In this document: positions 5,145 through 62,784 of the stretch, one piece after another
Numbering within the stretch: the stretch's first letter is position 1
How the letters are laid out: every line of letters starts with the position of its first letter
Position numbers and translations under genes: made by a program
Origin: Chiloscyllium plagiosum
Taxonomy: Eukaryota
NCBI RefSeq assembly: GCF_004010195.1
Contig: NC_057718.1
Location: forward strand, 77,749,571 to 77,813,570
Direction of reading: 5' to 3'
DNA length: 64,000 bases
The notes under the pieces: model-generated
What the model was told of the DNA's origin: nothing
The model's input: only the letters and a program-made list of their open reading frames with translations
Databases searched by the model: none

Positions 5145-5365
5145 TTGAAACTTTATTGCGGGAACAGCACAGCAGGTCAGGCAGCATCCAGGGAACAGGA
5201 GATTTGACGTTTCGGGCACAGGCCCTTCTTCAGGAAAAAATCTTCGGCCTGTGCCCGAAACATCGAATCTCCTGTTCCCTGGATGCTGCCTGACCTGCTG
5301 TGCTGTTCCAGCAATAAAGTTTCAACTTTGATCTCCAGCATCTGCAGACCTCACTTTCTCCTCGA
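5145..5365 (+). mobile_element. Hairpin PLE mini-element (family A) with 14-bp TSD
   Basis: TSD agaacccaaactgg at 5131-5144 and 5366-5379; arms about 5145-5224 and 5246-5326. Confidence 0.9.
5206..5233 (-). ncRNA. Minimal hammerhead ribozyme motif (family A), intact core
   Basis: Minus strand CTGAAGA-A-GGGC-CTGT-GCCC-GAAA-CG-TC. Confidence 0.7.
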
Positions 5366-6988
5366 AGAACCCAAACTGGGCATCACTGAGCAGGTTATTG
5401 CTGACCAAGCAATAGCACTATTGATGACACCTTCCATCACTGATCGAGAGTAGATTGATGAGACATAATTAATTAGGTTGGATTTATCCTGCTTTTTGTT
5501 TACAGGATACACTTGGACAATTTTCCACATTGTCGGGTAGGTGCCAATGTTGTATCTGTACTGGAAGAGCTTGGCTACTGGTGTGTGGAGTTCTGGAGCA
5601 CAAGTTCTATTGTTGGAATGTTGTTAGGGCCCATTGCCTTTGCAGAATCCAATGCCCCCAACTATTTCTTGATATCATGTGGAGTGAATAAACTTAGTTG
5701 AAGACTGGTATCTATAATGTTGAGGACCAAGATGGATTCCCCACTTGGCATTTCTGGATGAAGATTGGTGCGAATGCTTCAGTCTTATTTTTTTCTCTTG
5801 TGGGTTGGGCTCTTCCATCATTGACGATGGGAATATTTGTGAAGCCTCCTCTCCAGTGAATTGTTCAATTGCCCATCACCATTTATGACTGAACATGGCA
5901 GGACTGCAGAGCTTAAATCTGATCCATTGGTTGTGGGATTGGTTAGCTCTGTCCCTCACTTGCTGCTTATGCTGCTTGGCATGCAGATAGTCCTGCTTGG
6001 TTGCCTCACCTGGTTTTCTGCTCATTTTTAAATATGCCTGGGGCAGCTCCCAGCATTCCCTCCTGCACTCGCTATTGAACCATGGTTGATTGCCTGGTTT
6101 GATGATAATGGTTGAGTGGGGGATATGCTGGGCCATGAGTTTGCAGATTGTGCTGGATGACAATTCTGCTATTGTTGATGGCCCACAGCACCTCATGGAT
6201 GCCCAGTCTTGAGTTGCTAGATGTGTTCAAATTCTGCCCCAATTAGCACAGGGATAGTGCCACACAACATGATGATTTCACTTTCTTGAACCACCATAGT
6301 CCATGGGATGTAAAGATACCCACAGTGCTGTGAGAAAGGGCATTCCAAATTTGAAACCAATGGATGTGATTTTATGGGTCCGAGGAGAGTAGGAATCATG
6401 GTAGATAGCGGACATAATAAGCAAGTGCTGAAATTTCACTTTCTTCATAGCTGGTTCAAATTTAGAGATGAATTCATGTTTATGTCAAGTCCATCCTCAC
6501 ATTAACCCATGGCAGGTACTTGTAATACATTTGTAATGCATTTGTAATTTATGATCATGAAAATCTATTTTTTTGTTGCATCTAATGTTCATGATAAAAC
6601 CAGCATTGCAAGTAAATCTTGAAACACCTGATTCATGTTTACTTAAAGATGGTGTGCAACAATTGGCTCTCTATACAAGGGAGGAGAGAGGAGAAGGGCT
6701 GAAAATGTGTTGCTGAAAAAGCGCAGCAGGTCAGGCAGCATCCAAGGAGCAGGTGAATCGACGTTTCGGGTATGAGCCCTTCTTCATGAATGAGGAAAGT
6801 GTGTCCAGCAGGCTAAGATAAAAGGTAGGGAGGAGGGACTTGGGGGAGGGACGTTGGAAATGCAATAGGTGGAAGGAGGTCAAGGTGAGGGTGATAGGCC
6901 GGAGTGGGGTGGGGGCGGAGAGGTCAGGAAGAAGATTGCAGGTTAGGAAGGCGGTGCTGAGTTCGAGGGATTTGACTGAGACAAGGTG

Positions 6989-7590
6989 NNNNNNNNNNNN
7001 NNNNNNNNNNNNNNNNNNNNNNNNNNNNNNNNNNNNNNNNNNNNNNNNNNNNNNNNNNNNNNNNNNNNNNNNNNNNNNNNNNNNNNNNNNNNNNNNNNNN
7101 NNNNNNNNNNNNNNNNNNNNNNNNNNNNNNNNNNNNNNNNNNNNNNNNNNNNNNNNNNNNNNNNNNNNNNNNNNNNNNNNNNNNNNNNNNNNNNNNNNNN
7201 NNNNNNNNNNNNNNNNNNNNNNNNNNNNNNNNNNNNNNNNNNNNNNNNNNNNNNNNNNNNNNNNNNNNNNNNNNNNNNNNNNNNNNNNNNNNNNNNNNNN
7301 NNNNNNNNNNNNNNNNNNNNNNNNNNNNNNNNNNNNNNNNNNNNNNNNNNNNNNNNNNNNNNNNNNNNNNNNNNNNNNNNNNNNNNNNNNNNNNNNNNNN
7401 NNNNNNNNNNNNNNNNNNNNNNNNNNNNNNNNNNNNNNNNNNNNNNNNNNNNNNNNNNNNNNNNNNNNNNNNNNNNNNNNNNNNNNNNNNNNNNNNNNNN
7501 NNNNNNNNNNNNNNNNNNNNNNNNNNNNNNNNNNNNNNNNNNNNNNNNNNNNNNNNNNNNNNNNNNNNNNNNNNNNNNNNNNNNNNNNNT
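6989..7590. other. Assembly gap
   Basis: Run of N. Confidence 1.
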
Positions 7591-9146
7591 TGGAACTGGT
7601 CCTCCTGGGAGCAGATGCGGCGGAGACAAAGGAATTGGGAATATGGGATGGCATTTTTACAGGGGGCAGGGTGGGAGGAGGTGTAGTCTAGGTAGCTGTG
7701 GGAGTCGGTCGGTTTATAGTAAATGTCTGTGTTGATTCGGTCACCCAAGATAGAAATGGAAAGGTCTAGGAAGGGGAGGGAGGAGTCTGAGACAGTCCAG
7801 GTGAATTTGAGGTTGGGGTGGAAGGTGTTGGTAAAGTGAATGAACTGTTCAATCTCCTCGTGGGAGCATGAGGCAGCGCCGATACAGTCATCGATGTAGC
7901 AGAGGAAAAGGTGGTGGGTGGTGCCAGTGTAGCTGCGGAAGATGGACTGTTCCACATATCCTACGATGAGGCAGGCATAGCTCGGGCCCATGCAGGTGCC
8001 CATGGCTACTCCTTTGGTTTGGAGGAAGTGGGAGGATTGGAAAGAGAAGTTGTCAGAGTGAGGACCAGTTCAGTCAGTCGAAGAAGGGTGTCAGTGGAAG
8101 GGTACTGGTTAGTACGGCGGGAAAGGAAGAAGCGGAGGGCTTTGAGTCCTTTCGTGATGGGGGATGGAGGTGAACAGGGACTGGATGTCCATGGTGAAGA
8201 TAAGGCGTTGGGGACCGGGGAAGCAAAAATCATGGAGGAGGTGGAAGACGTGGGTGGTGTTCCGAACATAGGTGGGGAGTTCTTGGACTAAGGGGGACAG
8301 GACCGTGTCGAGGTATGCAGAGATGAGTTCGGTGGGGCAGGAGCAGGCTGAGACAATGGGTCAGCCAGGGCAGTCAGGTTTGTGGATTTTGGGCAGGAGG
8401 TAGAAATGGGCGGTGCGGGGTTGTGGGACTATGAGGTTGGAGGCGGTGGATGGGAGATCTCCTGAGGTGATGAGGTTCTGGATGGTCTGGGAGATGATGG
8501 TTTGGTGGTGGGAGGTGGGGTCATGATCAAGGGGGCAGTAGGAGGAGGTGTCCGCGAGCTGGTGTTTAGCCTCAGTGGTGTCAAGGTCGGTGCGCCAAAC
8601 TACTACTGCGCCTCCCTTGTCTGCCGGTTTGATAGTGAGGTTAGGGTTGGAACGGAGGGAGTGGAGGGCTGCACGTTCTGAGGGTGAGAGGTTGAAGTGG
8701 TTGAGAGAGGTGGAGAGGTTGAGGTGGTTAATGTCGCGGCGGCAGTTGGCTATGAAGAGATTGAGGGCAGGTAAGAGGCCAGCACGGGGTGTCCAGGTGG
8801 ATGGGGTGTGTTGGAGGCGGGAGAAGGGGTCGTCAGAGGGTGGGCGGGAGTCTTGGTTAAAGAAGTAGGCACGGAGGCGAAGGCGGCGGAAGAATTGTTC
8901 GATGTCACGCCGCGTGTTAAATTCATTAATCCGGGAGCGTAGGGGAATGAAGGTGAGGCCTCTGCTGAGGACTGATCTTTCATCCTCAGAGAGGGGTTGT
9001 TCTGGAGGGATGGTGAAAACACGGCAGGGCTGGGAGCTCGGATCTGGTGTGTGGCTGGAGCTGGGAGTGGGGACGGGGTTGGGCATGGGTGCGGGGACGG
9101 AGTTTGACGTGGGGGCGGGATTAGGCATGGTGACGGAGATCAGCAT
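7591..9146 (-). pseudogene. PLE reverse transcriptase, frameshifted
   Basis: ORFs 8361-9146, 8006-8269 and 8003-7591 join into a Penelope RT (ADKG, LPKIHK, YIDD, FLDL, YYKPTD). Confidence 0.9.
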
Positions 9147-9220
9147 GGGGCGGAGTTAGGCGTGGTGACGGAGATCGGCATGGGGCGGAGTTAGGCGTGG
9201 TGACGGAGATCGGCGTGGGG
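9110..9220. repeat. ~35-bp tandem repeat x3 inside the PLE 5' region
   Basis: Unit ggggcggagttaggcgtggtgacggagatcggcat. Confidence 0.85.
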
Positions 9221-9992
9221 GTGGAGACACATGCGGCGTGGTGCTTGTGCAGGTTAGTGATGTCACTGGGGGCAGAATTGGCTGCGACGACGGCAACCCA
9301 GGGGGCGGAAGTGGCTGTGGCGACGACAGAAACGGTGTTATTCCCGACCCCGCGGAGGCCGCGAATCTGTCGGCGATGGTCTTCCTGGCGATTGTGGAGG
9401 CGGTTGTCTGGGCGGCGATCGCGGAGGCTGCGAGGTCGGTGGGGGCGGAAGTGACGTCATGGTTCGCGGCGGCGGTTGCTGCCACGGGTGCTGCAGCGGC
9501 CGCGTGGTTAATGGCGCTCGTGTGATTTCGGAGGCCGGTGGAATAATCTGGAACAGTCCTCAGCAGAGGCCTCTGACGACCCCTTCTCCCGCCTCCAACA
9601 TACCCCATCCACCTGGACACCCCGTGCTGGCCTCTTACCTGCCCTCGATCTCTTCATAGCCAACTGCCGCCGCGACATTAACCGCCTCAACCTCTCCACC
9701 CCTCTCACCCACTCCAACCTCTCACCCTCGGAATGTGCAGCCCTCCACTCCCTCCGCTCCAACCCAAACCTCACTATCAAACTGGCAGACAAGGGAAGCG
9801 CGATAGTAGTTTGGCGCACCGATCTTTACACCACTGAGGCTAAACGCCAGCTCGCGGACACCTCCTCCTACTGCCCCCTTGACCATGACCCCACCTCCCA
9901 CCACCAAACCATCATCTCCCAGACCATCCAGAACCTCATCACCTCAGGGGATCTCCCATCCACCGCCTTCAAAAAAAAATTTTTTTAAATTC

Positions 9993-10020
9993 CTGAAGAA
10001 GGGCTTATGCCCGAAACGTC
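9993..10020 (+). ncRNA. Minimal hammerhead ribozyme motif (family A), intact core
   Basis: CTGAAGA-A-GGGC-TTAT-GCCC-GAAA-CG-TC. Confidence 0.75.
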
Positions 10021-10088
10021 GATTCTCCTGTTCCTTGGATGCTGCCGGACCTGCTGCGCTTTTCCAGCAACACATTTTCAGCTTATGT

Positions 10089-10785
10089 NNNNNNNNNNNN
10101 NNNNNNNNNNNNNNNNNNNNNNNNNNNNNNNNNNNNNNNNNNNNNNNNNNNNNNNNNNNNNNNNNNNNNNNNNNNNNNNNNNNNNNNNNNNNNNNNNNNN
10201 NNNNNNNNNNNNNNNNNNNNNNNNNNNNNNNNNNNNNNNNNNNNNNNNNNNNNNNNNNNNNNNNNNNNNNNNNNNNNNNNNNNNNNNNNNNNNNNNNNNN
10301 NNNNNNNNNNNNNNNNNNNNNNNNNNNNNNNNNNNNNNNNNNNNNNNNNNNNNNNNNNNNNNNNNNNNNNNNNNNNNNNNNNNNNNNNNNNNNNNNNNNN
10401 NNNNNNNNNNNNNNNNNNNNNNNNNNNNNNNNNNNNNNNNNNNNNNNNNNNNNNNNNNNNNNNNNNNNNNNNNNNNNNNNNNNNNNNNNNNNNNNNNNNN
10501 NNNNNNNNNNNNNNNNNNNNNNNNNNNNNNNNNNNNNNNNNNNNNNNNNNNNNNNNNNNNNNNNNNNNNNNNNNNNNNNNNNNNNNNNNNNNNNNNNNNN
10601 NNNNNNNNNNNNNNNNNNNNNNNNNNNNNNNNNNNNNNNNNNNNNNNNNNNNNNNNNNNNNNNNNNNNNNNNNNNNNNNNNNNNNNNNNNNNNNNNNNNN
10701 NNNNNNNNNNNNNNNNNNNNNNNNNNNNNNNNNNNNNNNNNNNNNNNNNNNNNNNNNNNNNNNNNNNNNNNNNNNNNNNNNNNNA
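10089..10785. other. Assembly gap
   Basis: Run of N. Confidence 1.
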
Positions 10786-10789
10786 GGTC

Positions 10790-11480
10790 CACACCCCCCA
10801 CCAACCCAACCTCCACTCCCGGCACCTCCCCCCGAAACCGCAAGAAATGCAAAACTTGCGCCCACACCACCCCCCTTACTTCCCTTCCCTTTCCTGAAGA
10901 AAGGCTTATGCCCCAAACATCGATTCTCCTGTTCCCTGGATGCTGCCTGACCTGCTGCACTTTTCCAGCAACACATTTTCAGCTCTTCCCTTCAAGTACC
11001 CAAGGGATCCTTCCATATCTGCCACAAATTCACCTGCACCTCCACACATATCATTTACTGCATCCGCTGCACCCGATGTGGCCTCCTCTATATTGGGGAG
11101 ACAGTGCGCCCACACCGTCCCCCTCACTTCCCTCCAAAGCCCTAAGGGTTCCTTCCATATCCGCCACAAATTCACCTGCACCTCCACACACATCATTTAC
11201 TACATCCGCTGCACCCGATATGACCTCCTCTATATTGGGGAGACAGGCGGCCTTCTTGCGGAACGTTTCAGAGAACACCTCTGGGACACCCGGACCAACC
11301 AACCCAACCACCAGTGGCTCAACACTTCAACTCCCCTCCCTACTCCACCAAGGACATGCAGGTCCTTGGACCCCTCCATCGCCAGACCATAGCAACACGA
11401 CAGCTGGAGAAAGAGCGCCTCATCTTCTGCCTAGGAACCCTCCAACCACAAGGGATGAACTCAGATTTCTCCAGTTTCCT
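10790..11480 (+). pseudogene. PLE Cys-rich linker and GIY-YIG endonuclease (disrupted, partly duplicated)
   Basis: RKKCKTCAH; FTCTSTHIIYYIRCTRYDLLYIGETG..LAERFREHL; AQHFNSP; LGTLQPQGMN. Confidence 0.85.
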
Positions 11481-11698
11481 CATTTCCCCTCCCCCCACCT
11501 TGACTCAGTCCCAACCCTCGAACTCAGCACCGCCTTCCTAACCTGCAATCTTCTTCCTGACCTCTCCGCCCCCATCCCCCACTCCGGCCTATCACCCTCA
11601 CCTTGACCTCCTTCCACCTATTGCATTTCCAACGCCCATCTCCCTAGTCCCTCCTCCCTACCTTTTATCTTAGCCTGCTGGACACACTTTCCTCATTC

Positions 11699-11726
11699 CT
11701 GAAGAAGGGCTCATGTCCGAAACGTC
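11699..11726 (+). ncRNA. Minimal hammerhead ribozyme motif in the PLE 3' terminal repeat
   Basis: CTGAAGA-A-GGGC-TCAT-GTCC-GAAA-CG-TC, about 100 nt before the element end. Confidence 0.75.
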
Positions 11727-14700
11727 GATTCACCTGCTCCTTGGATGTTGCCTGACCTGCTGCGCTTTTCCAGCAACACATTTTCAGCTCTGATCTCCAG
11801 CATCTGCAGTCCTGACTTTCTCCTAGGAGAGAGGAGAATAGCAGCTTATGAGAGGCTTGGGTACAGAAATGGTAAATCACTGGTGAGGGATGGTGGTGTA
11901 GTTGGGAGGGGTGAGGACACGAGGGATTGGAAAAAGTTTGGAGAAGTGAAATAGGAAAAGTCTGGCCTCTGGGATGTAGTGAGAGCAGAAAGTGAAGCTA
12001 AGGAATTGAGGAATCCAAAGATGTGTCAGGACTGTCTATCTCAAAGTGATGGCTGGCAGAGTCCTCGCAGGGCACAACATTTCAATCATCCCAGGTGAGA
12101 GTGCTCTCAAACAAGATCTTTTATATTACATAGAAGGGAGTGTCGGTAGCTAAACTGATGAGTACAACACTGAACATTAATACAAACATTCAATAAAGAT
12201 TGATCTCAAAAACAAACACTTCTTCCACATTAAATGAATGACCTAAACTCCCTTGTAACTATTTTTACCTGCCAGTTGTGAGGTGTGGCAGTGCATTTAG
12301 CCCTCTGACTAAGCTATATCAACAAATAACAATGATGCACCCATGAATAAAGTGAGACCAGTGTAAGTGAAACTTAAATCAGAAAACACCAGTGCCACCT
12401 TTGTGCTCTCACTACGCCTTATGTTAATGGAAATGAAGTTGGGCAAGTGATGGTCCTGATGAAGAGCTTGTTTGTCCAGGAGTTTCTTTTGTAGCCTGCC
12501 CCCTAATTGCTGCAGTGTCAGCTAACGGTGGGTTTCACCCGTGGAAGGTTTTTCCTGCCACAGGAACACATGTGATTCCAGTCCACCAACACTTTAGATC
12601 TTAATTGTAAATGCATGGCAACCAGCAAAAACCAAGAGAATGGAAGTGGTGCCTGTGTTCTCTCCGATTGTTGGGAGCAAAACAACACGGTTAATATTCC
12701 ACCCATTATTTCTGGTAGTTCTTTAAATTCATCCAATAGTGCTATTGGACGATGGATGCTTGTCATCTTATTTGGAGACTGTTTCCTTCATTCTTCCTAT
12801 TGTCATTTAGCAAAAGGCTCAAAAATGTAACTTCACACATTAACTTTACAGTCAATGCTTTATTGTAGACTATTTTAAAAATGCACAAGATATATTTTGG
12901 TCACAAGCAACACATTGCTCTCTACTCAGCCTGTAAGATGTTTGAAGAGGCTTGCAGACAGGGTGCGACAGGGAATGACAAATCCTGTGCAACATTGTGA
13001 AGTAAGCTAACAACCTTTCTATACCCAGAATTTATGGTATTACAAAAGTGAGACCCAAGAACAACATCAGTGAATGCCTTTAGTAAAACAACATACTGTG
13101 GAAGGGAAATGCATGTTGATTTTGCCTGAGTCACTGCTTCAAGTTACAAATCAAAAGGTAGCAATTCCTTACATTCCAATCTTAGCAGGCTAGCCAAATG
13201 GAATTTAAAGCACACCTCATTATATTGGAATAATAGGAAGCACTGTTCATTTGCACGCCCAGACTGGTTTGAAGGTTTTTTTGTTATTCATATTTCACCA
13301 CAATATTTCATTACTTATAATAGAAATTCATATCCAGTCACTTCAGTACATTGTTAAATTATTTTAATTAGGTTGTTTGGAGTGAAAACATTTCAAGGTG
13401 TCTGAGCACTGTTTATAACAGTGATATAACTGATTTATAACACAAGCCATTAAAAAAAAACAGAATCTTGTTTTTCACACTTTGTATCTTGGTTTGCTTA
13501 TTGCATACTTTATTACCTCTCCATTTAGATTTGCTTTCCCTCATTGCCTTACTTCATTTGAATTGAGTGTTTACAGTGTTCTCACAGAACTTGTGACCAG
13601 TCATTAGCTGATGGCCAAGAAAGGTCCTAAATGGCTCAGTCTCTATTACTCAAACCATTCATTGTTAAGCAGTTGGCAATTAGCCAGACATTCTCCTTCA
13701 TATGACAGCAGAGATTAGAACTGCATTATATTTCACTGCCTATTGTCAGTTTTTTTAAATTTCAAAACTAGATTAGCTAATGTAATTAACATTCAATCAA
13801 TATTTGCTTAATATAAATATTGTAGCTCAAACGTTTTTTAAAAAGTTCATGATTAACATTCACTTCGTAAATAAACAGAGGAGTTATTAAAAGGACACTG
13901 TTTCAGGATAAAGAATTTGACAGATGTTGTTGGTAGTTATATGAACAGCCAAAACAGAACTGGGGGATAGTTTTTGTTACAGCTATGTACTTATAAATTA
14001 CACAATAATGCACAAAAGCACAGTAATATCACTGCATTATATATTAAGGAGCAATGTAACAAAAGGGACTTACAAATTCTTTTGTCATGGAAGCTGTTGT
14101 TAGTTCTGACCACCTTAAAACACCAATGGCATATTCTTGTTGTCCTAAATATAAAACAATTATTGTTAATGGCATCTTGACAACTGATTTGTGATTTCCT
14201 GTGCCATTCACCATGATGTCAGATGATCTTTTAATCTTTTAACAAGTCGTATTCCTTTCAACAAGCTAATGAATACAAAATCCACCAAAACTGTTTACAG
14301 TGTGAGAGACTCAATCGGCAATGGGGTAGAATGTAAAACAAATTTGTTAATGACAACAATAAAATTGCTGAAGTGTCAAGTCATCCACAACTGATGTTTC
14401 AATTTTGTGACTCCCTTGTAATGCACAAAGTATAACAGTTTAGCATGGTATTATCAATGCTAACAGAAGGAGAATTGAGAAGAAAAAGATTGAATGTTTT
14501 CCTTTGATGAAGAATAAAATTGTTCTTTATTAGTTGTTTGTTCAAATTGATTAAGTCTTCAAAATATGTTAAGATCCTACCATTGATTAAAATCAGTGAG
14601 GTAGAGGAGTATCAATCTCATAGAGCCCAATGTGACACTAAATCAGGTACAAAGGATTCATGTCAAGCTACATGGCACAAAGTTCTGTATGCTGTTCTCA

Positions 14701-14878: not shown

Positions 14879-16120
14879 CAGTCTGTTCTGCTATGAGCCA
14901 GTAGTTGTATTCTCATCCGACCTCATGTTATAGAAAATTGTGCAATAGAAATGACAGGGTCTATGGGAGAAACAAGGTTGGGGCAAACCACCAAAAACAT
15001 CAGTTAAAAAGTTTGCTGAGTTACAGTACTGTAGTAAAACTGGGGCTGAGGGTCATCATCAGCATCATCATTACTTTCAGGCACAGTTCTGGATGCAGGA
15101 TTATGATGAAAGAAAATATTTAATCCAGAAGTGGATGGCTGTGGCTCATTGTCCTCAGATTGTTTCTTGGGGGTTGGCTTAAAAAAGGCATCTAGTTTTT
15201 GCTACTTTGCCATCTTTCTTCTTTCATCAAGAAGCTGTTCAAAGGGTGCCAGATAAGACTTTATGCCATGAACTGCTCTCCTACTGCCGTCTGCAATGTA
15301 ATCGTTGTCTTCAAGGAGCTGCGACTGTTTCTCAGCTTCCCTCAGAACAGAAGACAAAAGAAATGGAGTGTTCTCATGGTGCTGCATTCTGGACTTCATT
15401 GTCTTCACCTCGGGCTTCAATTGCCCCCATAGAAACAAGTTACTGTAGATCAGTCTCCACTTCAAATCCAACTTGCTTTGCAAGAGTGACACAATGTTCT
15501 CTGATTGCTGGGAGCTCCTCTGACAGTTCAACACCTTTAAAGTCATGAAGAAAATCTGGGAACAGCTTCCACTAAACTGCATGCAAGCAGTCCTTACTGA
15601 TATCATCCCAGGCCTCCACAATGATGTCAATAGCATTATTAATGTTAAAGCTCTTCCAAAATTGAAGCACACTGTCCTCATTATTCCTCTCAGTAGCTGC
15701 AATCAGCCTCCTGAATGTGCACTTTAAATAATAAGCTTTAAAAGCTGCCATTGCACCCTGGTTCGTGGATTGAATGAGAGAGATTGTGTTCAGAGGGAGA
15801 AATAGCACTTCGATGTTTTCAGAAAGCTTATCAATGGTGGAAGGATGGCTTGGTGCATTATCTAGAATGAGGAGAATCTTGAAATCCAGATCTTTACTCC
15901 TGCAAAAATTTCTAAAAGACATCCTCAAAAACATCAATAATAAGGTCAAAAAAAAAATGGCCCCATTATCCAACACCTTGAATAGACTTAAGGTTACTAG
16001 GGATGGAAACACGTAATAACCAATGGGAGTTTGTGTTTAAACAAAATCATTCCCCAATTCATCAATTCATGTTACAGTCAAATTGTGTTGATGAAATGCG
16101 CGTTATAGGAGAAAGGGTTT
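14879..16120 (-). mobile_element. pogo/Tigger-like DNA transposon remnant
   Basis: ORF 15572-16012 ILLILDNAPSHP...FLPLNTISLIQSTNQGAMAAFKAYY (DDE_1 motifs); weak terminal inverted match cagtctgttctgctat / ataggagaaagggttt. Confidence 0.85.
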
Positions 16121-17059: not shown

Positions 17060-17240
17060 TAGAAGCCTGCAAATCTACACCACAGGAAATGACATCACCA
17101 ACCCAAAGAAACCCAAACATTTAATAGAGAGCAGGAATTTTCAGCATTGCTTTGCATGAGATCTACTGAAGATGTTACCTAGTAAGGTAACGAAATGTCT
17201 GGAAATGAACCTTTCAGCTCAGCGAGCAAACCTACATCCA
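17060..17240 (+). mobile_element. Probable PLE terminal-repeat fragment (family D)
   Basis: Carries a hammerhead motif with flanks unrelated to families A-C. Confidence 0.6.
17163..17202 (+). ncRNA. Minimal hammerhead ribozyme motif (family D)
   Basis: cta-CTGAAGA-T-GTTACCT-AGTA-AGGTAAC-GAAA-TG-TC-tgg; 7-bp stem II; ACGT to ATGT CpG decay. Confidence 0.65.
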
Positions 17241-19261: not shown

Positions 19262-19425
19262 AAGTAGGAGAAAGTGAGGACTGCAGATGCTGGAGATCGG
19301 AGCTGAAAATGTGTTGCTGGAAAAGCGCAGCAGGTCAGGCAGCAACCAAGGAGCAGAAGAATCGACGTTTCGGGCATGAGCCCTTCTTCAGGAATCCTGC
19401 GCCTTTCCAGCAATACATTTTCAGC
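19262..19425 (-). mobile_element. PLE mini-element (family A) with short inverted arm, intact hammerhead at 19364-19391, 15-bp TSD
   Basis: TSD ttattctataggtca at 19247-19261 and 19426-19440. Confidence 0.9.
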
Positions 19426-19821
19426 TTATTCTATAGGTCACCAACTAATGAAAGAGGTGCTAACTGTTACGGACATATTACAAGTTTTAAAACAAGTTTC
19501 TCTCCTTATTCTCACTTCTTGTCCATTAGCAGATTGTGATTTAAGTTTTCCCATTTTTTAAACAGTGGAGTTGCATTTGTCTGATTTCGTCTGTTTGTGA
19601 ACTCTAACTCTGTACAGACCACAACAATATTGTGGTAAAGTTAGAAAAGAAGTAGAGTTTATATCACACAATCTCAGAGGCAGGGGAATGTTTTACAATA
19701 CTGTAAGATAGAATCAAAAAGAATGAAGGCAATATTCAATTAATACCAACTTATATACAAAATAACAAGAGTTACTAGTTGAACAATGTCCTTGCATGTA
19801 AAAATAGAATCCAAAAGTCAG

Positions 19822-49555: not shown

Positions 49556-49728
49556 CAGTGGAATTGTCTATTCTTTCCAATCTGGCAGGTTAGACACACC
49601 ATTGTTGTGCCATTATGACGTTCCGATCACTTAATCTGAATTATCAACATCCTTTCTTCCCCAGCACTCCAACGCACACCCTCCCACCCACTATTACATA
49701 AATGCTGCCCCCTCCACATTTCATTTTA

Positions 49729-49765
49729 GCTCTGATGAAGAGTCATCTAGACTCGAAATGTTAGT
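49729..49765 (+). ncRNA. Minimal hammerhead ribozyme motif (family C)
   Basis: gct-CTGATGA-A-GAGTC-ATCTA-GACTC-GAAA-TG-TT-agt. Confidence 0.65.
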
Positions 49766-49996
49766 TTGCTTTCTCTCCATGGATGCTGCCTGACCCGCAA
49801 CGATCTCCAGCATTTCTTGTTTTCCTCCTGTGAGGATGTTGGTTGAATTCTCTTCGGATGTAATCTGTTTCATCTAGACTCGAAATGTTAGTTTGCTTTC
49901 TCTCCATGGATGCTGCCTGACCCACAACGATCTCCAGCATTTCTTGTTTTCCTCCTGTGAGGATGTTGGTTGCATTCTCTTCGGATGTAATCTGTT
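49743..49996. repeat. 127-bp tandem duplication
   Basis: 49743-49869 repeated at 49870-49996 with 2 substitutions seen. Confidence 0.95.
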
Positions 49997-53239: not shown

Positions 53240-55476
53240 CATAGGATGATGGCAATGGTTGTGAGTAAAAACCCAAACATTGTGAATGAACTTAGTGGTG
53301 AAAAACCAAACCTTTGAAAAATCAATTCAATTAGACTATTACTCTATGGGTTGGTTATTGTTTAATAGCTGGGAGGTGAGCGAAGACAACAACAGCAACC
53401 CAGACAAAAGTTATGAAAAATCAGAACAGCTCCAGTCAAAGTCAAATCATTAAATCTACTAATATAAGTTTCAAGCATGAGGCAGGAGTCAGGTGAATCT
53501 GTTGACAATTTCATAACAAAATTGAAAATATAGCCAGAAAAATGTGAGTACCCAAATGAAAGCCTGTTAGATCAGCTCATATATGACTTTGTATATGAAG
53601 CTCAAAGAGACTAATTGGAAGCTCACAATATCACAAGCTATAGGCATTAATAGAGTACATGATGAAGATGAAGCTGTTGACTACCCAAAGAGCTAGCTTT
53701 TAGTTAGATCTAAAAAATGACAGCAGGGCAGGAGATTTGAAGCAATGAATAACTACAGAAGAATTCACATCAGATGTGCCAAAGATGTGGATAACCACAG
53801 GAGTTCACATATAGATTGCCAACAATATATTGCCTCTGAATCAAACAGCAAAGGTTCTGGGAAGCCAAATCACTGGGAAAAGGATGTACCAAGGAAAGAA
53901 CAAAGATGGTAAGTGATTTATCAGTGTCATAGCAAAAGGGCAAATGAGAGGCATGGTGGCTCAGTGGTTAGCACTGCTGCTTCACAGCACCAGGGACCCA
54001 GGTTCGAGTCCGGCTTCAGGCATCTGCCTGTGTGGAGTTTGCACATTCTCCCTGTGTCTGCATGGGTTTCCTCTGGGTGTTCCAGTTTCCTCCCACAGTC
54101 CGAAGATGTGCAGGTCAGGTGAAATGGGATGCTGGGTGCTTTTGTCAGAGGGAAATGGGTCTGAATGGGTCACTCTTTGGAGGGTTGGGGTGGACTTGTT
54201 GGGCTGAAGGGCCTGTTTCCACACTGTAGGGTATCTAATCTAAAACATCCCTGAAAGCTGACAATACATTTGATGATACAATAGATATAGGAACTTTACA
54301 ACCACATGAAATGTCTGGGTGTGACAGCAACACCACAGAGATTATATATCCCATCTCAGTTGTCACCACAAGAGAAACATGAGATAAACGTTCTAGCTTT
54401 AAAAAAGCTATCGCTGAATAAATGTAGCATCACTGAAAATGAGCCAAATTAGAGATCAATCCAGCAACAATGAAAAGTTCGGAATGCCTGGATCACTTGC
54501 TTCTGTTAACAAGTGATCCAAAGACGGCTTGATTATATAGCCAGTATAGCCAGCAGTATGGTAGGTACTGGTCTATCTGAGATGATAACTCACTAAAAGC
54601 TGATGTTATGTCAACAAGACCCAGGTTAATCATATGCAAAACAATTCAATAAGAAATTTTTCAAAAGGTACATTAAAGCTACTTGGGAATAAGCTCAGTG
54701 CCATCTACAAAAGTATTGAAAAAATGATACCCACATGCTGTGGATGCCAGAAATACATACCAATAAGAGGTCTCACTGCTGGAGTATCACCCAGATTTTG
54801 ACATACTATAGGAGCCAATTTATTCAGATGAAATCATGAATGGTACCTCATAGTTGTGGATTATTAAATTTTCTTTGTATCCAAACGGCGAAAGATTTCA
54901 GAGCTACATCTAAGTAGTACGAGTTCCATTCATTGAGCAAGCTAGGGATCGTGAAAGGAAAATGCGTGACCAGGATCCCAATTCACTCCAGAAAATTTCA
55001 GGAACAGTGAAAATCAGCAGCTCATCCCCACATTACACCAGGTGACACTACAGATAGAGACCTCCAAATGTTCACAAGGAGCCTCATGAAATGCAAAGAG
55101 ACAAAGGAAGGCTTAATTAATCCAACCTACATTTCTCAAGGCTGACATAATCTGCCTGCTGCAGAACTGTTGAATGTAAAAATGTATGTGACAAATCTGC
55201 AAAGCAAGATACTCCCTCTATGTTTTGCTGCTTTTGGAACTGTGAATGCTAACTAGCCAAGGTCCAGGATGGCACCATATTACCAGTAGCCATAAGGAGT
55301 CCAAGCAGCAGCATGCTGCATTAAAGATATGTACAGAAGTTGCTCTGCAAATGCAAGTTACCACAATGCAAGTTAAATAAATCTGTTTTGAGATTTCAAA
55401 GTAAACTGAACTTAAACTACTTACCAATTGGGTGTGAGAATGGTATTACTGTGTTGAAGAAAACAACCTAAGATTA
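53240..55476 (+). mobile_element. Heavily decayed Gypsy internal region (gag, zinc knuckle, integrase)
   Basis: ESGESVDNFITKLKI*PEKCEY..LLDQLIY; GKPNHW; CCGCQK; YLIVVDY; DQDPQF; SSPHY. Confidence 0.7.
53948..54243 (+). mobile_element. HE1-like V-SINE
   Basis: Homologous to 50591-50927. Confidence 0.85.
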
Positions 55477-57549
55477 AGTTTAAAATCACACAATGCCAGG
55501 TTATAGTCCAATAGCTGCTCCTTCATCAGGTGGTTGTGCAGAATAAGATCATGATCACAGATTTTATAGCCAAAGGAATCCAGTATCATGGAGATGTGAT
55601 ACATTAAACAATTTTAGATTACATCTTTCATCTTTTAGAATGGGTTATGATGGTTCTTTGATATGTAAATCACAGAACTTCTTTCAAATTACATTCTCAA
55701 GATAACTCAGCTTTTCTCACAATCGGTGTGAAGTCTGTCTGTGTCCTAATGTTGAGTCAGACTGACAAGCCCGCTACATAGTTTTGCAGAGTTTTATATG
55801 GATTTGTGCATTTTTGAGCAAAATAAAATGTAATTCTGCAAAAACAAATTCCCCCCATAAACTTATATATGGGCGCGGGTTGGAGTGGCATAGTGAGTGT
55901 GTACGTGAGTGTGTTGTGTATGGGTGTGAGTGTATATGTGTGTGTGCAAGCTTGGTTAAGTGTATGTGTGAGTGTGATGGGTTATGTGTGAGAGGGTGCA
56001 TGTGTTGGTGTGAGTGTGGGGGTGTTGGTGTGTGCATATGAGAGAGAGCTTGTATATGAGAGAGGGCCTGCGTGGGGTGTGTGAGTATGTAGGAGTGCAT
56101 GTATGTGTGTGAGAGAGAAAGTGTATGGTGCTGTGGGGTCACCAGTAGTGTGACATGAACCCAAGGTCCAGGTTGAAGCCAATCTCATGGATACCGAGCT
56201 TTGCTATCAGCTTCTGTTGAGCCACTCTGTGCTATTGCTTCTCCCGAATTCCACTTTAGGGTATGGTCACCTGAAGTTCCGAGGCTGTATGTCCTGGACC
56301 TTTGAAGTGAACACTTCAGTGGTCCAGAACATTTGGCCTCAGACCTTTGGGTGACCATCCTCCAAGGCAGACTTCAGGACAAGCAATCATGCAGAGTGGC
56401 TCAGCAGAAGCTGATAGCAAAGCTCGGTATCCATGGGAATGGCCTCAACCTGGACCTTGGGTTCATGTCACACTACTGGTGACCCCACTGCACCATACAC
56501 TTTCTCTCTCACACACATACACGCACTCCTACATACTCACACACCCCACGCAGGCCCTCCCTCTTATACAAGCTCTCTCTCATATGCACACATCAACATC
56601 CCCACACTCACACCAACACATGCACCCTCTCACACATACCTCATCACACTCACACATACACTTAACCAAGCTTACATACACGCATATATATATATATACA
56701 TACACATACTCTATCAGGCGCACTCACACCCACACACATATACTCACATGCACACTCACTCTGCCGCTCCTACGTGCGCACACATATAGGTTTATGGGAT
56801 GAATTTGTTTTTGCAGAATTACATTTTATTTTGCTCAAAAACTGCATGAATCCATGTAAAACTCTGTAAAACTATGCAGAGGGTTTGTCAGTCTGTCTCA
56901 ACATAAGGACACAGATAGACTTCACACCTATTGTTAGAAAAGCTGAGCTGCCTTGAGAATGATTTGGGAGGTGCCCTTGTTGGACTGGGGTGTACAAAGT
57001 TAAAACTCATACCATACCAGGTTATAGTCCAACAGGTTTAATTGGAAGCACTAGCTTTTAGAGCGCAGCTCCTTCATCAGGTGGTTGTGGGGAATAAGAT
57101 CATGCTCACAGATTTTATAGCCAAAGGATTCCAGTGTCATGGAGAGGTGATGTCACAACCACCTGATGAAGGAGCGTCGCTCCGAAAGCTAGTGCTTCCT
57201 ATTAAACCTATTGGACTATAACCTGGTGATGTGTGATTTTTAACTTTGTCCTGAAAATGTAATTTAAAAGAAATTTTGGGGTTCACATATCAAAGAACAG
57301 AAACCAGCATATCCCATTCTAAAAGATGAAAGATCTAATCTAAAATTGTTTAATGCATCACATCTCCATGACACTGGACTCCTTTGGCTATAAAATCTGC
57401 GATCATGATCTTATTCCCCACAACTACCTGATGAAGGAGCAGCACTCCAAAAGCTAGTGCTTCCAAATAAACCTGTTGGACTATAACCTAATGTTTTGTG
57501 ATTTTTAACTTTGTCCACCCCAGTCCAACACTGGCACCTCTATAAATCA
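55477..57549. mobile_element. Fold-back PLE derivative (family B), about 2.1 kb, 12-bp TSD, nested hairpin at about 56962-57250
   Basis: Centre tgaagtg-aa-cacttca at 56303-56318; TSD aacctaagatta at 55465-55476 and 57550-57561. Confidence 0.92.
57160..57194 (+). ncRNA. Minimal hammerhead ribozyme motif (family B), fully intact
   Basis: CAC-CTGATGA-A-GGAGC-GTC-GCTCC-GAAA-GC-TA-GTG: stem I CAC/GTG, 5-bp stem II, palindromic AGCT. Confidence 0.8.
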
Positions 57550-57629
57550 AACCTAAGATTATTATAACCTCCAAGTGATCAGGTAGAAGTAAGACAACTG
57601 ATCTCTAGGTAGAAGGAGGTCATCACCTC

Positions 57630-58130
57630 AGTAAGCATAGGAATACAGAATGTAAGAGCCCAGGATTTAGGTCTTCGGAGCAGCAGTGGACCAGTTGGCC
57701 CTTTGAGTCTGCTGCATTATTCAACATGATCATGGCTGATCTTATTCCCTGCATCTTGACTCTTTGTCTTTCAGAAATCTAATTTAGCCTTGATTACATT
57801 AAAAGACTTAGGCTCAATATTATTTTGGAGAAGAGAACTCTATACTTTAATGACCCTATGATAGAAAAACATTCTCCTGAACACTGCCTTAAAAAGAAGA
57901 CCTCTTATTCTTAAACCATGTCCCCTAGTTTTAGTCTACCCCAAGGGACACATCCTCCAAGTATCCACACTCTCTAGACCACTCAAGTTCTTCTATGCCT
58001 CAACAAGGTCATCTTCCATCTTTTGAAACTCCAATGGATACAGACTTAGCTTGCCAAAGCATTCTTCTTAAGATAGGTCCTTTCAGCCCAGGAATCAGCA
58101 AAGTTATAGGAGGGTTCACTGACTGCTCTT
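57630..58130 (-). mobile_element. CR1 3' fragment
   Basis: GHGLRIRGL..AVFRRMFFY; LKGPILRRML. Confidence 0.7.
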
Positions 58131-58619
58131 CAGTCACTCCAAACTGTTTTAGTGATCTACTGAAAACCTTGTGATATGACCCACCTTTGTATCTCAGCAA
58201 AACTGCATGTACATAATCACCTGGAACAGTCAAATGAGTAATCAGTCAAATGGAACCTTGTACTGTCTCCTGAATATTACAATATCCTCCAAGTGTTGGC
58301 GGTGAAAGTGCAAAAATGCATAAATTCATCAAACTGTTGTTCTGTGCTACACTGTAAATACTGTTAAGGACACATAAACTACTCCCATGAGTTACCTTTT
58401 ACCTCTGCTAATATTTATCTCCACCGAAACATACTCTATACTTTGATCTTTCAAGTTAAGATTATTTCTCAGTACTGATCTAATACCATCCAACAGAGCT
58501 ATCCTGTCAGCTTTTCCTAACTTCCTGATATTCCAATAAATCAAATATCCTTCAGCATTCAACATTCAACATTTAATTTTGTTAAAACCCTGCCTGAGTT
58601 ATTGAAAGGGCAAACTATA

Positions 58620-58712
58620 CGGGGTCAGTTAGACTCGAAACGTCAGCTCTTTTCTCTCCTTACAGATGCTACCTGCTGAGATTTTCCAGCATTTTCTCTT
58701 TTGGTTTCAGGA
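58620..58712 (+). mobile_element. PLE terminal-repeat fragment (family C variant)
   Basis: GGGTC-AGTTA-GACTC-GAAACGTC then family tail; the CUGAnGA half is missing. Confidence 0.7.
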
Positions 58713-60154
58713 TCCCAACATGCAAACCAGGACACCAGCAAATATTATTGGTGAAGTTGAGACTCCAGAAGCAAGCAAATCAGAATGGGCAGAGTTCAGG
58801 TCTGACCTATACCTCAGAAAAGATCATTAACAGCACAGCAACATCATTATTCAGCGAGTCAACATTACCAGTAGTACAAAATGTGAACACAACCAGCAAG
58901 TGCCATAAACAATAGCAATATTAAACATAACCTTCAACACAAAAATTAATCACCTGTGCATTGTGTGCCAACTCACCAGTGAGTACCAAATCCAGAAGAT
59001 GGAGGCACATCCTATCACCTAAGAGATACTGTGAATAATATTTTTCGAAAAGAAAACAAGCTATGAAACACTCGACATGTTCCACTTGATTATAAAAGTT
59101 ATTTATTCATTTTCATCAGTGTGATATCACATATATAAAAACATTAATGATTGGAATAGTTATTTGATTTTTTTAAGGAAAGAGATGTAATATTGTTATA
59201 CTAAGGACACTTAGGAACTAATTCTGATGAAAATGCAGATACAGGGTGCTAAATTTTACAATTGCATAGCAGTTCTGTGTCAAGTAACATGAATCAGTCT
59301 ATTCATTCTACCAATCCCTTGGTGAGCAGAAAGCAATATACATGGTGAAGTTCCAGGATTTTGAATCTAAAAGGTGATTATTTCTAAATTATATGCGCCA
59401 GGGGACAAAACACTTTGAACTGGAATTTTTTGAAAATGGAAGAGCCCCAAGCCTGAGCAAAAATGGCACCAGACATCTAACTCCAAACGTTCCACTTCCC
59501 CTCCCACTATCCAGCAACTATTATTTCCTCTGGGGTAGAGAGAGCAGAATGAAGTTTACAGATGCATTATTCGTTATCAAAGGAAATTGTCTGCTTTCTT
59601 CACTATGTTGAGAGAGAAAGGCAAAGAAGATTAATTTTAAAAATTGAGAAAAAGAGATAAATGAAGGATAAGAAAAGCGGAATATATTCTTGCTGGCAAA
59701 AGCACCTTATTGTTTTTAAGCAGGTTTATTTTTGTTATGAATGAGCATTTGAGACATGCAATGACATGCATACTGAAACTGTCCAATTTCTGGCCACTTG
59801 CTTCCTTGCAGAAGAAAGGAAAAAAAAATCCTAAATCCATAGCTTGAAAAATGCCAGTATCTTTTATGGAGAAATCGGCACCAGGAGCCTTTACTGACAA
59901 ATGTAAATGTTGCTTTACCCACGAGACAGAAGTGGAGACACAGACGCACCACTGCTTATTAGTCTGAAATTCCCCTGCATAATTATTTAAGCTGTAGGAG
60001 ACAGACAAGTGTTGCTACTTCACAATTACTACATAATGTTGCAAACTGCAATAGCAAGGCATCAACCAACACAGTCAGGCTACATGCCACATTGCAATCT
60101 GATTAGTCAAAACCTAATTCAAACTAGCATGTCTAAGATAACGAGTCATATACC

Positions 60155-60305
60155 TGATAAAAGCAAAATACTGTGGATGGGGAAATCTGAACTAAAATTG
60201 TGCTGAAGTGCAATGAAAATGATAAAGAAACCCAGTAGATATGGAAGCATTTCTGGAGAGAGGAACAGAGTTAATATTTCTAGTCCGAAATCACTCATCT
60301 TCAGA
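60155..60305 (-). mobile_element. Old PLE terminal-repeat fragment (family C-like)
   Basis: Similar to 403-540; minus strand CTGAAGATGAGTGATTTCGGACTAGAAA. Confidence 0.55.
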
Positions 60306-60744
60306 ATAGTACCTAGTTTGGCACAAATTAATTCCAGAATATTACCCAAAGTGGCACCACCCTGATGAATAGCAGTCAGCAGTAATGACTCACATTTTAC
60401 AAATTGGCTTGGGACAAATTGCTAAACAGGCTAACTCAGTACTCAGCCTGCTCATTTAGTATGTTTCAGAACAGCAAGCTCTATTCATAATATAATACAA
60501 GACATCAATGACAAACTCCTTTCTCCTTTTTACTTACTTCACTCTGGATATCCATTTTCCTAGCCCAATTTTCCAATTTAGCTCTCTTGAGAAACGCAGA
60601 CAATATTTGATTTGGGAGCTGTTCATCATAATGCAGCAACAGAATTGGAGGCCACTCCTTATGTAGCTTTTCATAACTGAGGTTTTCTGGCATTTAAAGG
60701 TTCAAAGCAACCTTGACAAGGCACAGAGAGAAATTGTGTCGAAG

Positions 60745-61250
60745 GAAAGTAGGTGAGACAGTAGGTTGGGCAGGTAGGCAGATGAGGGGGCTTGGTGATG
60801 AGTGGGTGAGGCAGGTATGTTAGTGTGTGGATAGGAGGAATGTAGGCAGGCAATGGGAACATGGTAGATTGAGTCAAAGAGTGTTGAGAATCAGATTAGG
60901 TGTTTGGATTGGGTCAAACGAGTGTCAGGTCTAGGGCTAATCAGGTCAGGGAAGGGTATTGGATTAGGATAGGAGAATATTGGGTCAAGGCTTCATTTTG
61001 AGAAGTTGGTCATAGGGGTGCTAAGTTGGGGGTTTGTGTTGTGGGAATTAGGTTGGGGGGCTTAGGTGAGAGAGGGTCATGTTGAGGGGTGCTGAGTTGG
61101 GGAATAATGGAATATGAGGTCACGGGCAGTGTTTTTAGTTAAGGGATTGCGCTGGATCAGGGAGTTTATCAGGTTGGGATAATGTCATGTTGTCTTAGAT
61201 TGGGTAGGGCTCTCAAGGTGGGAGAGAAGTTGAGGGGTCTGTGATGAGTT
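60745..61250. repeat. G/T-rich degenerate simple repeat
   Basis: Recurrent gggt/aggt/ttggg words. Confidence 0.65.
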
Positions 61251-62563
61251 AGAAGGTTCAGTTTTACAGTTACCTAAGAATTAGAGCTGATTTTAATTCC
61301 TCTAACTTTCCCGCATAACTATTCAGGTAAAACAAGTCAGAATCCTCTAAAGTCTTCAACTGTAACTCAGCTTTGAGACCTTTTGGAGCATTCCAGATGT
61401 TAGGTAATTGCCAATGGAAATTCCCAGATAATTCTGAAGTAGACAGTGCATTGGAATATCCAAATGAACCTGTAGTATATTTTTCAAACGATGTCAATGC
61501 AATCGCTATCTTCCAATCAACCCCACTGATTTTATTTTAAGAAGAGCAGTGAAGAGATGAAGGACCTACACAACGTAATAGCCTTAAATATTACAGTTTG
61601 GTCTTAATCATGAGATATCATGGGTCCTGAAACAGCAAACGTGGAAAGATCATTTCTTTTGATGAAGGAGTGTATGATGAAAATCCACCAGTTTAAAATC
61701 AGTGCTGAGAGGAGTATAGTGGGACACCTATATGCACACAGAGAGTTGTTAGAGAATTGGAAGCTTTGTGACTGAGATGTCTGACACTGATAATTGTGTT
61801 GCTTAAAGGATAAGCAGATAAATATCAGAAGCAAAGTAACATATGGGAAAAGGAGCAATGTATTTTATTGTTGGTATATGCATGTGATAAAAGTAAATAT
61901 AGACATAATGAATCCTACTAAGTCTCAGAAATTCTATATGTCATGTAACATTTCATTTTCACTCCACAATCACTATACTTTGTTTCACACCACTTTACTC
62001 TTTCACCTCTTGGCCATCAATTTAAACCTAGGATGAGCTGCAAGGAGAAGGGTGGAGATCGGAAAATTTGAGAATAGGAAATCTAACCACAGCCACCTCC
62101 AGTTTTAGCAGAGACAGATTGACTAAATACTGTCTGTGTCTGGGTGCCTCATTTCAATAGTACCATGAGATTGCTGACTAAGACATTGTCTGTCTTTTGG
62201 GTTGAACATTGGCCAGGTGAGTTTCCTATACTCAGAAACCCAACAAATGAAGGGAGCTGAAAATGGCTGGTTTGAACTGCATTGTTTGCAGGACAGGAAT
62301 ATCAGGATTGTTTCAAACCATTAAATCTGAAAATATTGAAGAAGGTTATGTTTAATCCCCCATGCTGGATGAGCAGAAGAGTGATTGTTGGGAGTTGGAG
62401 AAGGGGGAGCAGTTAAAAGCTTTAAAATGAGATGTAATTCACTTCTATTTCTTTCCCACTGAAGATTCTTTAGCCTGGTGACAGATTTTGATCTAAATGT
62501 CCAAAACAAAAAATCCTTAAAACAAATCTTCCAACAAACATGATAAGATTGCATTAAAGTCAG

Positions 62564-62784
62564 GGAGGAGAAAGTGGGGACTGCAGATGCTGGAGATCAG
62601 AGCTGAAAAATGTGTTGCTGGAAAAGCGCAGCAGGTCAGGCAGCATCCAAGGAGCAGGAGAATCGACGTTTCGGGCATAAGCCCTTCTTCAGGAATCATC
62701 CTGAAGAAGGGCTTATGCCCAAAACGTCAATTCTTCGGCTCCTTGGATGCTGCCTGACCTGCTGCGCTTTTCCAGCAACACATT
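62564..62784. mobile_element. Hairpin PLE mini-element (family A) with back-to-back hammerhead motifs
   Basis: Minus core 62665-62692 intact; plus core from 62701 has GAAA changed to AAAA; TSD ttaaagtcag at 62554-62563 and 62785-62794. Confidence 0.92.

Follow-up and report, generated by a model that had tools for sequence, protein, structure and literature searches.

Short repeat units headed by minimal type I hammerhead motifs, probable 3'-terminal pieces of Penelope-like retrotransposons, in the genome of Chiloscyllium plagiosum

The window (the whole stretch of 64,000 nt of contig NC_057718.1 of Chiloscyllium plagiosum that was analysed, with position 1 as its first letter) harbors copies of short repeat units from several families. 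A unit has a length of about 95-135 bases and is headed by a minimal type I hammerhead motif. By homology (BLAST and inspection) 28 copies were recognizable, 15 of family A, 7 of family B, 3 of family C, 2 of a C-like family, and 1 of family D. Relics included, this corresponds to a mean spacing of about 2.2 kb in the non-N sequence. The family A copies and the sequences joined to them are:

5146-5236, minus strand, family A unit with intact hammerhead at 5206-5233
5252-5368, plus strand, inverted partner of 5146-5236, broken within the hammerhead and without the CUGANGA box
6690-6988, minus strand, 3' untranslated body of a Penelope-like element (PLE) with family A unit, core C3 altered, entering an N stretch
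9989-10083, plus strand, family A unit with an A/T run ahead and an N stretch behind, intact hammerhead at 9993-10020
10891-10986, plus strand, short-ended family A unit opening a partial tandem, G10.1 and G12 altered, 9-bp flanking repeat
10987-11694, plus strand, 5'-truncated PLE body in the middle of the partial tandem, GIY-YIG-like frame followed by the 3' untranslated region
11695-11824, plus strand, family A unit with tail at the end of the partial tandem, hammerhead at 11699-11726 with G.U at 10.3-11.3
19265-19426, minus strand, family A unit with tail and a 30-base inverted fragment (19397-19426), intact hammerhead at 19364-19391
19825-19948, plus strand, decayed unit of the GAGC/GCTC type, C3 altered
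23025-23109, plus strand, family A unit with TTTT loop, borderline hammerhead at 23029-23056 (G.U at 10.1-11.1, C.A at 15.2-16.2)
29812-29908 (minus strand) and 29977-30043 (plus strand), two decayed family A copies inverted relative to each other
39805-39932, minus strand, decayed family A unit with tail, G5 altered
43341-43491, both strands, inverted family A pair, both copies without the CUGANGA box, folding into a long hairpin and giving a weak Rfam MIR528 look-alike
62566-62696, minus strand, family A unit with tail, intact hammerhead at 62665-62692
62699-62786, plus strand, inverted head-to-head partner of 62566-62696, G12 changed to A

The copies of the other families are:

540-600, plus strand, decayed motif of the C-like family
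17166-17199, plus strand, intact family D hammerhead with 7-bp stem II, the sole family D copy in the window
27300-27415 (minus strand) and 27666-27775 (plus strand), two decayed family B copies
46496-46598, minus strand, decayed family C copy, G12 changed to A
49456-49551, plus strand, decayed family B copy about 500 bases past the PLE frames at 47916-48951
49728-49996, plus strand, family C unit with intact hammerhead at 49732-49762, followed by a second copy of 127 bases that begins within loop II
55476-55538, minus strand, family B copy with internal deletion
56975-57096, minus strand, family B copy inverted relative to 57155-57251, G12 changed to A, poly(A) tails of RNA reads at 57022
57155-57251, plus strand, family B unit with intact hammerhead at 57163-57191
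57409-57520, plus strand, family B copy, G12 changed to A, AATAAA, poly(A) tails of RNA reads at 57486
60240-60304, minus strand, second decayed motif of the C-like family

The following PLE frames are also present:

8361-9155, minus strand, PLE N-terminal frame of 264 aa with KPADKG and LPKIHKP stretches
9512-9988, plus strand, inverted and 5'-truncated copy of the 8361-9155 frame
47500-48951, plus strand, broken PLE frames, endonuclease-like at 47500-47811, later-RT and endonuclease-like at 47916-48951

The hammerhead motif consists of a stem I of 3-5 bp, the CUGANGA box, one unpaired base, a stem II of 4-7 bp with the pair G10.1-C11.1, GAAA, stem III, and H17. Stem III is made of two bases without a loop (ACGU or AGCU) and is directly followed by the predicted cut site H17. 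We searched with a strict descriptor (core, optional bulge, stem II of at least 4 bp, GAAA, 0-6 inner bases, and TH), which gave 9 matches in the window and none in the reversed window. A loose pattern (CTGAWGA-N6-30-GAAA) matched 18 times, compared to a mean of 4.6 and a maximum of 9 in 100 dinucleotide shuffles, none of which reached 18. Twenty 10-kb stretches at fixed coordinates of four contigs besides the window's own (194,042 bases) contained 16 strict matches and the reversed control 1. The type I core order CUGANGA...GAAA...UH was found at 9 sites in the window and 16 sites in 194 kb of other contigs. The motif is genuine and well beyond chance expectation, and its density in the window is ordinary for the C. 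plagiosum genome. All eight positions listed by the sequence-only reading carry an intact motif. Its number of about 25 copies holds if decayed relics are counted, but not for the literal pattern, which occurs at the 9 sites. In 19 of the 28 copies a core base is lost, frequently by a change of G12 to A at CpG, or the motif is interrupted, and 9 copies have intact motifs.

Three features not required by the strict descriptor also recurred. A single unpaired base between A9 and G10.1 was present in 9/9 window motifs and 15/16 motifs of the other contigs. The closing pair G10.1-C11.1 was found in 8/9 window motifs and in 20 of the 23 motifs of a pooled set (9 from the window and 14 from the other-contig sample), the remaining 3 having G.U. 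The inner stem III (15.2-16.2) was CG or GC in 6/9 window motifs (UG in 2, CA in 1) and in 17/23 pooled motifs (UG in 2, CA in 4); among the genome matches listed for families C and D it was CG in many and otherwise TG or CA. In the 23 motifs, stem I positions 1.1-1.4 were paired in 68 of 92 cells and positions 1.5-1.6 in 13 of 46. Stem I of family A is weak, with two pairs, a U.U mismatch at 1.3, and then one pair.

An abundant repeat that merely happens to contain CTGANGA and GAAA would have its counts swollen by copy number alone, and Rfam indeed gave no hammerhead match. The check proposed earlier, a search with the Hammerhead_1 model, yielded no match in the window, neither at the gathering score nor with E relaxed to 10, and the same was true for Hammerhead_3. 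A genome search with RF00163 was also without match, but control genomes were equally silent, so that this search was uninformative. The motifs share the catalytic core of Hammerhead_1 (RF00163), and we suppose that the model does not match because stem III is missing. A whole class of minimal hammerheads is missed by standard Rfam annotation. A chance likeness is nevertheless extremely improbable: at least four unrelated unit sequences share the core, the bulge, the G-C closing pair, and the palindromic stem III while their paired stems differ, and the reversed-sequence controls were almost empty. Minimum-energy folds recovered stem II alone for monomers and mostly swapping of stem II for dimers, which has no bearing on the tertiary fold.

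Exact genome-wide counts were 127,400 for family A, 16,625 for family B, 3,277 for family D, and 291 for family C, with zero matches for each reversed-pattern control. These counts bear out the dense, multi-family hammerhead load proposed from the letters of the window. Since the MAFFT alignment set family B out of register, pairs were counted with our own structure-anchored script and not with a covariance model. Between the families, three standard pair types occur at 10.2, four each at 10.3 and 10.4, and four each at 1.1 and 1.2. Within family A, copies with A at 10.2 have T at 11.2 in 1,785 of 4,544 cases (the GAGC/GCTC subfamily) and 2,759 are uncompensated; among the copies listed with G at 10.2, T at 11.2 was seen in 2/100. 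For the single further pair of family A that was examined, 10.3-11.3, 99 of the 100 variants listed were uncompensated, therefore most copies evolve unconstrained, and the variation at this pair looks like plain decay. In family D, C at 10.3 was accompanied by G at 11.3 in 6 of the 6 copies listed, which may be due to chance. The claim that stems change in a pairing-preserving way thus stands between families and in the GAGC/GCTC subfamily, but fails at 10.3-11.3 of family A. Nor do the family A loops vary freely, as had been suggested: among the genome matches listed they mark subfamilies, TTAT, TCAT, and CTGT occurring with A at N7 and TTTT with T at N7.

The units are very probably 3'-terminal pieces of several PLE families. 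The frame at 10898-11392, which lies about 300 bases ahead of the unit 11695-11824, matched Pfam GIY-YIG with E 5.8e-4 and 20.5 bits, under the cut-off of 22.6. No Pfam match was obtained for the frames at 47500-48951, which were interpreted by visual comparison with the frame at 10898-11392. The N-terminal frame at 8361-9155 contains the DKG motif, which is diagnostic for PLEs (PMC8557442). It has 147 scored relatives among 30,444 candidates in the genome, and its atlas neighbours are clusters of eukaryotic RT-domain proteins. One relative in the genome (L014) matched RVT_1 with 33 bits (cut-off 29.6) and has a family A hammerhead downstream; the RVT_1 match comes from this relative, none being seen in the window itself. 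RT core and endonuclease were not seen in one continuous copy among three long genome copies, because about 2 kb inside these copies reads N. A 5' hammerhead beside the N-terminal frame was not found within 0.9-2.5 kb upstream, where the alignment was mostly uninformative. Together with the published traits of minimal hammerheads, the GIY-YIG-like frame, the RVT_1 relative, and the N-terminal frames support the PLE origin that the sequence-only reading had put forward.

The arrangement of the copies is also informative. The two PLE copies 6690-6988 and 11400-11824 have tails identical to the family A unit. Head-to-head inverted pairs are present at 5146-5368, 43341-43491, and 62566-62786, and a partial tandem at 10891-11824. 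A 35-base tail is optional, so that a unit has one of two 3' ends, which differ by 35 bases, and single units lie between target-site duplications of 9-14 bp. These features fit PLEs, for which partial tandems, inverted 5'-truncated copies, and an optional tail of 30-40 bp are described (PMC8557442). Most copies are dead end-pieces.

Both the kind of element and the minimal hammerhead are already described, and no new mechanism is involved. Minimal hammerheads (min-HHR) in terminal repeats of metazoan PLEs were reported by Cervera and de la Pena 2014 (PMC4209133). According to the available parts of that paper, the motifs have in common with ours the type I order, the short stem I, the one unpaired base, G10.1-C11.1, and the loop-less palindromic stem III, as well as the occurrence of several families in a genome, numerous solitary copies, and opposite-strand pairs 100-700 bp apart. 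The same parts list a stem I of 4-5 bp and compensatory changes between consensus families, and name fishes, coelacanth, and frogs among the hosts. Stem II has typically 7-8 bp in the trematode families given there, but 4 bp in our main family. Copy numbers of about 4,000 in coelacanth and 9,000 in Xenopus are given there, compared to 127,400 exact family A matches in C. plagiosum. This adds a vertebrate genome with six-figure exact counts of PLE min-HHR, more than 10 times the largest number in those parts of the founding paper.

The Poseidon element PAc of Anolis carolinensis, as far as the accessible text describes it (PMC11167929), also has a hammerhead near the unit junction and AT-rich insertion sites, and its RT starts at two sites separated by 30-40 bases, which leads to an optional tail, as seen here. 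Its inverted copies are explained there by cutting and extension of both DNA strands. The PAc frame begins at stem II, whereas here the motif follows the frame, 95-130 bases from the end of the element. Animal non-LTR retrozymes (PMC7229834; preprint 10.64898/2026.07.22.740005; both as excerpted) are likewise type I, non-autonomous, and probably PLE-dependent, but form head-to-tail arrays of units, whereas here units are dispersed singly or in inverted pairs.

The units are present in poly(A) RNA. In RNA run X5, 2,983 reads were confined to repeat units and 206 reads crossed from a unit into the PLE 3' body. Contigs of runs X7 and X1 reflected repeat abundance only. Judging from the literature, a lone motif would be unable to form stem III. 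Two copies on a tandem or read-through transcript could join by base pairing of the palindrome and cleave behind H17, which would trim the PLE RNA. The RT of the element might then start at either internal site, about 95 or about 130 bases past the motif.

The PLE-derived motif may instead be kept for a role other than cutting, as a recognition or folding element for RT or endonuclease or as part of a promoter or leader, with cleavage in vivo marginal or absent. We consider this possible, though not probable. A lizard PLE with a dead hammerhead inserts in vitro, and no reads end at the cut site, in the passages available of PMC11167929; minimal hammerheads, dimers included, cut poorly in vitro according to the available parts of PMC4209133; and PLE clades lacking hammerheads still proliferate (PMC8557442). 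Of the family A matches, about half (27/53) start within a few bases of the first base of stem I. No pile-up of molecule starts or ends, including at H17, was seen in run X5, a poly(A) single-cell library poorly suited for this purpose. On the other hand, at least four families, with stems that have little sequence in common, retain the complete set of 11 core bases together with the cut-site triplet. Such retention would be difficult to account for unless the catalytic fold were under selection, and the palindromic stem III is what the dimer model requires. The copies constitute a clean natural data set, in which a compensated subfamily, two 3' ends, and sharp 5' edges are found alongside several families; it bears on whether the motifs serve RNA cutting in vivo or another step of PLE retrotransposition, a question live in the PLE literature.

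The sharp 5' edge also raises the question whether the short units are mere truncations. Of 53 family A matches, 27 begin 1-7 bases ahead of CUGA and only 9 extend into the PLE body; single units have their own target duplications, and retrozymes were proposed as non-autonomous derivatives of PLEs in the available part of the preprint (10.64898/2026.07.22.740005). The units could accordingly represent an element in its own right, non-autonomous and similar to a SINE or a retrozyme, that uses the PLE machinery. We regard this as rather unlikely, since the unit is identical to the two PLE tails, the window is free of head-to-tail arrays of units apart from the two copies at 49743-49996, of which the second is coreless, and a separate promoter was not found. 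A specific form, still more doubtful in our view, is that units of 100-135 bases each represent a complete reverse-transcribed copy of a short transcript, the start of which would be the first base of stem I, with RT from the two internal sites. The units would then be a self-contained, hammerhead-headed mini-element parasitic on its own PLE. Extrapolation of 35 matches in 194 kb leads to roughly 0.6 million copies genome-wide, with which C. plagiosum would have more hammerhead motifs than any other genome of the compared literature, as far as its available parts go. The sequence TCATTCC at the 5' edge of the unit resembles an initiator element, and TTTTATC is found about 35 bases upstream of this edge in the PLE body.

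The loose pattern CTGAWGA-N6-30-GAAA matched the 64,000-base window 18 times, compared to a mean of 4.6 in 100 dinucleotide-preserving shuffles, none of which attained 18. A strict descriptor (core, optional bulge, a stem II no shorter than 4 bp that may include G.U pairs, loop of 3-8 bases, then GAAA, 0-6 inner bases and TH) returned nine sites in the window and none in the reversed window. All positions named in the sequence-only reading were among these sites:

Strict-descriptor sites in the window
5233(-), 9993(+), 11699(+), 19391(-), 23029(+), 62692(-): family A
57163(+): family B
49732(+): family C
17166(+): family D

By homology, 28 copies were recognisable in the window (15 A, 7 B, 3 C, 2 of a C-like family, 1 D). 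A core base was lost or the motif truncated in 19 of the 28, and G12 to A at CpG was a frequent defect among degraded copies. The earlier figure of about 25 copies therefore fits the relics but overstates the literal pattern.

In all nine intact window sites a single unpaired base separated A9 from stem II, and only two bases lay between A15.1 and U16.1 (CG in five, UG in two, GC and CA in one each); stem II was closed by G10.1-C11.1 in eight. The strict descriptor permitted these features but never demanded them. PMC4209133 gives the same traits (unpaired base, loop-less stem III, G10.1-C11.1) as emerging from the searches of Cervera and de la Pena, which targeted minimal hammerheads in terminal repeats of metazoan Penelope-like elements (PLEs). 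Among the matches listed, many family C and D genome copies had CG at 15.2-16.2, from which the UG in the window is a CpG-type transition. Neither the gathering score nor a threshold as loose as E 10 gave a match to any Rfam family, which we presumptively attribute to the absent stem III.

The proposed Penelope origin was supported by neighbouring frames. The family A unit 11695-11824 comes after the frame 10898-11392, whose match to GIY-YIG is weak (E 5.8e-4, under the Pfam cut-off). Two inverted copies of a frame with KPADKG and LPKIHKP were present at 8361-9155(-) and 9512-9988(+); the DKG motif is called PLE-diagnostic in PMC8557442. This frame had 147 scored relatives, of 30,444 candidates in the genome, and its atlas neighbours were eukaryotic RT-domain clusters. 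One relative, the long PLE copy L014 from elsewhere in the genome, extends into an RVT_1 domain over the Pfam cut-off, and a family A hammerhead lies downstream. RT and endonuclease were not seen on one continuous copy because the interiors of long copies read N. About 2 kb of N lies inside each long copy examined (L013-L015), and the window N stretches (6989-7589, 10089-10784) adjoin PLE pieces; these N runs represent either gaps or sequence that was withheld. The assembly comprises 3.56 Gb in 101,977 contigs. GC-rich tandem repeats (9093-9227; periods 18, 35, 53) sit between the two inverted N-terminal frames; relatives carry this repeat in variable number, encoding proline-/threonine-rich stretches. 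The units are very probably PLE tails with predicted dimer-type hammerheads. Elements of this kind have been described before; as far as the literature covered extends, the present families, and the copy number they reach, are apparently a new member.

The dense multi-family load claimed earlier held genome-wide. Counts are exact pattern matches, with a reversed-pattern control of 0 unless stated:

Genome-wide matches
Family A (core, stem II, GAAA): 127,400
Family A plus CGTC: 86,254
Family B: 16,625
Family D: 3,277
Family C: 291
Generic pattern, A and B excluded: 19,072 (control 242)

A random sample, drawn from four other contigs as 20 stretches of 10 kb each, contained 16 strict matches in 194,042 bases versus 1 in the control; the window is therefore typical of the genome.

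Pairing-preserving change of the stems, also claimed earlier, was found only in part. Across 23 motifs, stems varied between families yet still paired, with 3, 4 and 4 standard pair types at 10.2, 10.3 and 10.4 and 4 each at pairs 1.1 and 1.2. Stem II pairing was 100% by construction because the descriptor demanded it; stem I, no descriptor requirement, was paired in 68 of 92 cells (1.1-1.4). Within family A, C at 11.3 was retained in 99 of 100 listed copies with non-G at 10.3, and variation at this pair is apparently plain decay. At 10.2-11.2 a compensated A-U was present in 1,785 copies versus an A.C mismatch in 2,759 (39% compensated), and of 100 listed copies carrying G at 10.2, just 2 had T at 11.2. 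Among the matches listed, compensated copies were uniform in N7 and loop, and matching rows of the generic-pattern listing mostly had a common downstream flank. The compensated copies therefore form a single successful subfamily, descended from a founder that retained the pair; compensation happened once, not repeatedly.

BLAST with query 11400-11860 gave 53 matches (18 in the window, 35 in the random sample). Their 5' ends lay 1-7 bases before CUGA in 27, reached into the PLE 3' body, the untranslated region preceding the family A unit, in 9 and began further inside the unit in 17. The 3' ends stopped near 80-105 (23/53) or 117-136 (25/53) bases from the unit start, and in the unit alignment the two alternative ends were separated by 35 bases. 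This gap agrees with the optional 30-40 bp tail and two RT start sites of PLEs in PMC8557442 and PMC11167929. The window has inverted pairs in head-to-head orientation at three places (5146-5368, 43341-43491, 62566-62786) and a single partial tandem (10891-11824), all consistent with published PLE insertion patterns; on contig 1, five close divergent pairs were read among the first 100 exact matches listed for family A. Direct repeats of 9-14 bp flank several single units, which were therefore inserted independently. The window held no head-to-tail arrays of multiple units, and in this the units differ from retrozymes.

The commonest 5' edge of solitary family A units was the A of ATTC within TCATTCC, which we take to resemble an initiator element; this edge may be a transcription start. 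In the PLE body, TTTTATC precedes this edge by ~35 bases (region 11660-11700). By eye, a frame from the loop II ATG is open across the entire 130-base unit at 62566-62680(-) and in other family A units, reminiscent of the lizard PLE, whose frame begins at stem II.

Among indexed RNA runs, none contained the stretch. Raw reads of the poly(A) single-cell RNA run X5 were mapped onto 56950-62850. They were confined to repeat units, on both strands, and the intervening unique DNA had zero depth. Given how abundant the units are, the reads derive from copies located throughout the genome. In 206 reads, sequence ran from the family A unit into the PLE 3' body. No position in this region stood out as a shared molecule start or end in this library, which is ill-suited to ribozyme ends. 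Poly(A) followed 57486 in 165 reads (family B unit 57409-57520(+)) and poly(T) preceded 57022 in 207 (56975-57096(-)); thus family B transcripts terminate inside the unit, upstream of the DNA-copy ends. Family B units have AATAAA or ATTAAA ~35 bases behind the hammerhead.

In the literature model, the palindromic stem III would allow two motifs on one transcript to pair, and cleavage would follow H17, the predicted cut site, trimming tandem or read-through PLE RNA. PMC4209133 and PMC6765202 give low in vitro rates, and PMC11167929 describes a lizard PLE that inserts in vitro without needing the ribozyme. Whether the predicted cutting matters in vivo is, in our judgement, about evenly balanced.

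The window also contained a pyrimidine-rich low-complexity stretch (37126-38261) with 25/49-base tandem repeats and long open frames on both strands, for which Pfam gave no match. A near-perfect 72-base hairpin at 56275-56346(+) is probably an inverted repeat of repeat origin; its match to Rfam mir-5595 was weak (32.5 bits against a gathering score of 100; E 0.016). An Integrase_H2C2 (integrase zinc-binding) frame at 1434-1862(-) (E 1.6e-14) is an LTR-type retroelement fragment, and a DDE_1 transposase frame at 15572-16036(-) (E 7.1e-21) a DNA transposon fragment.
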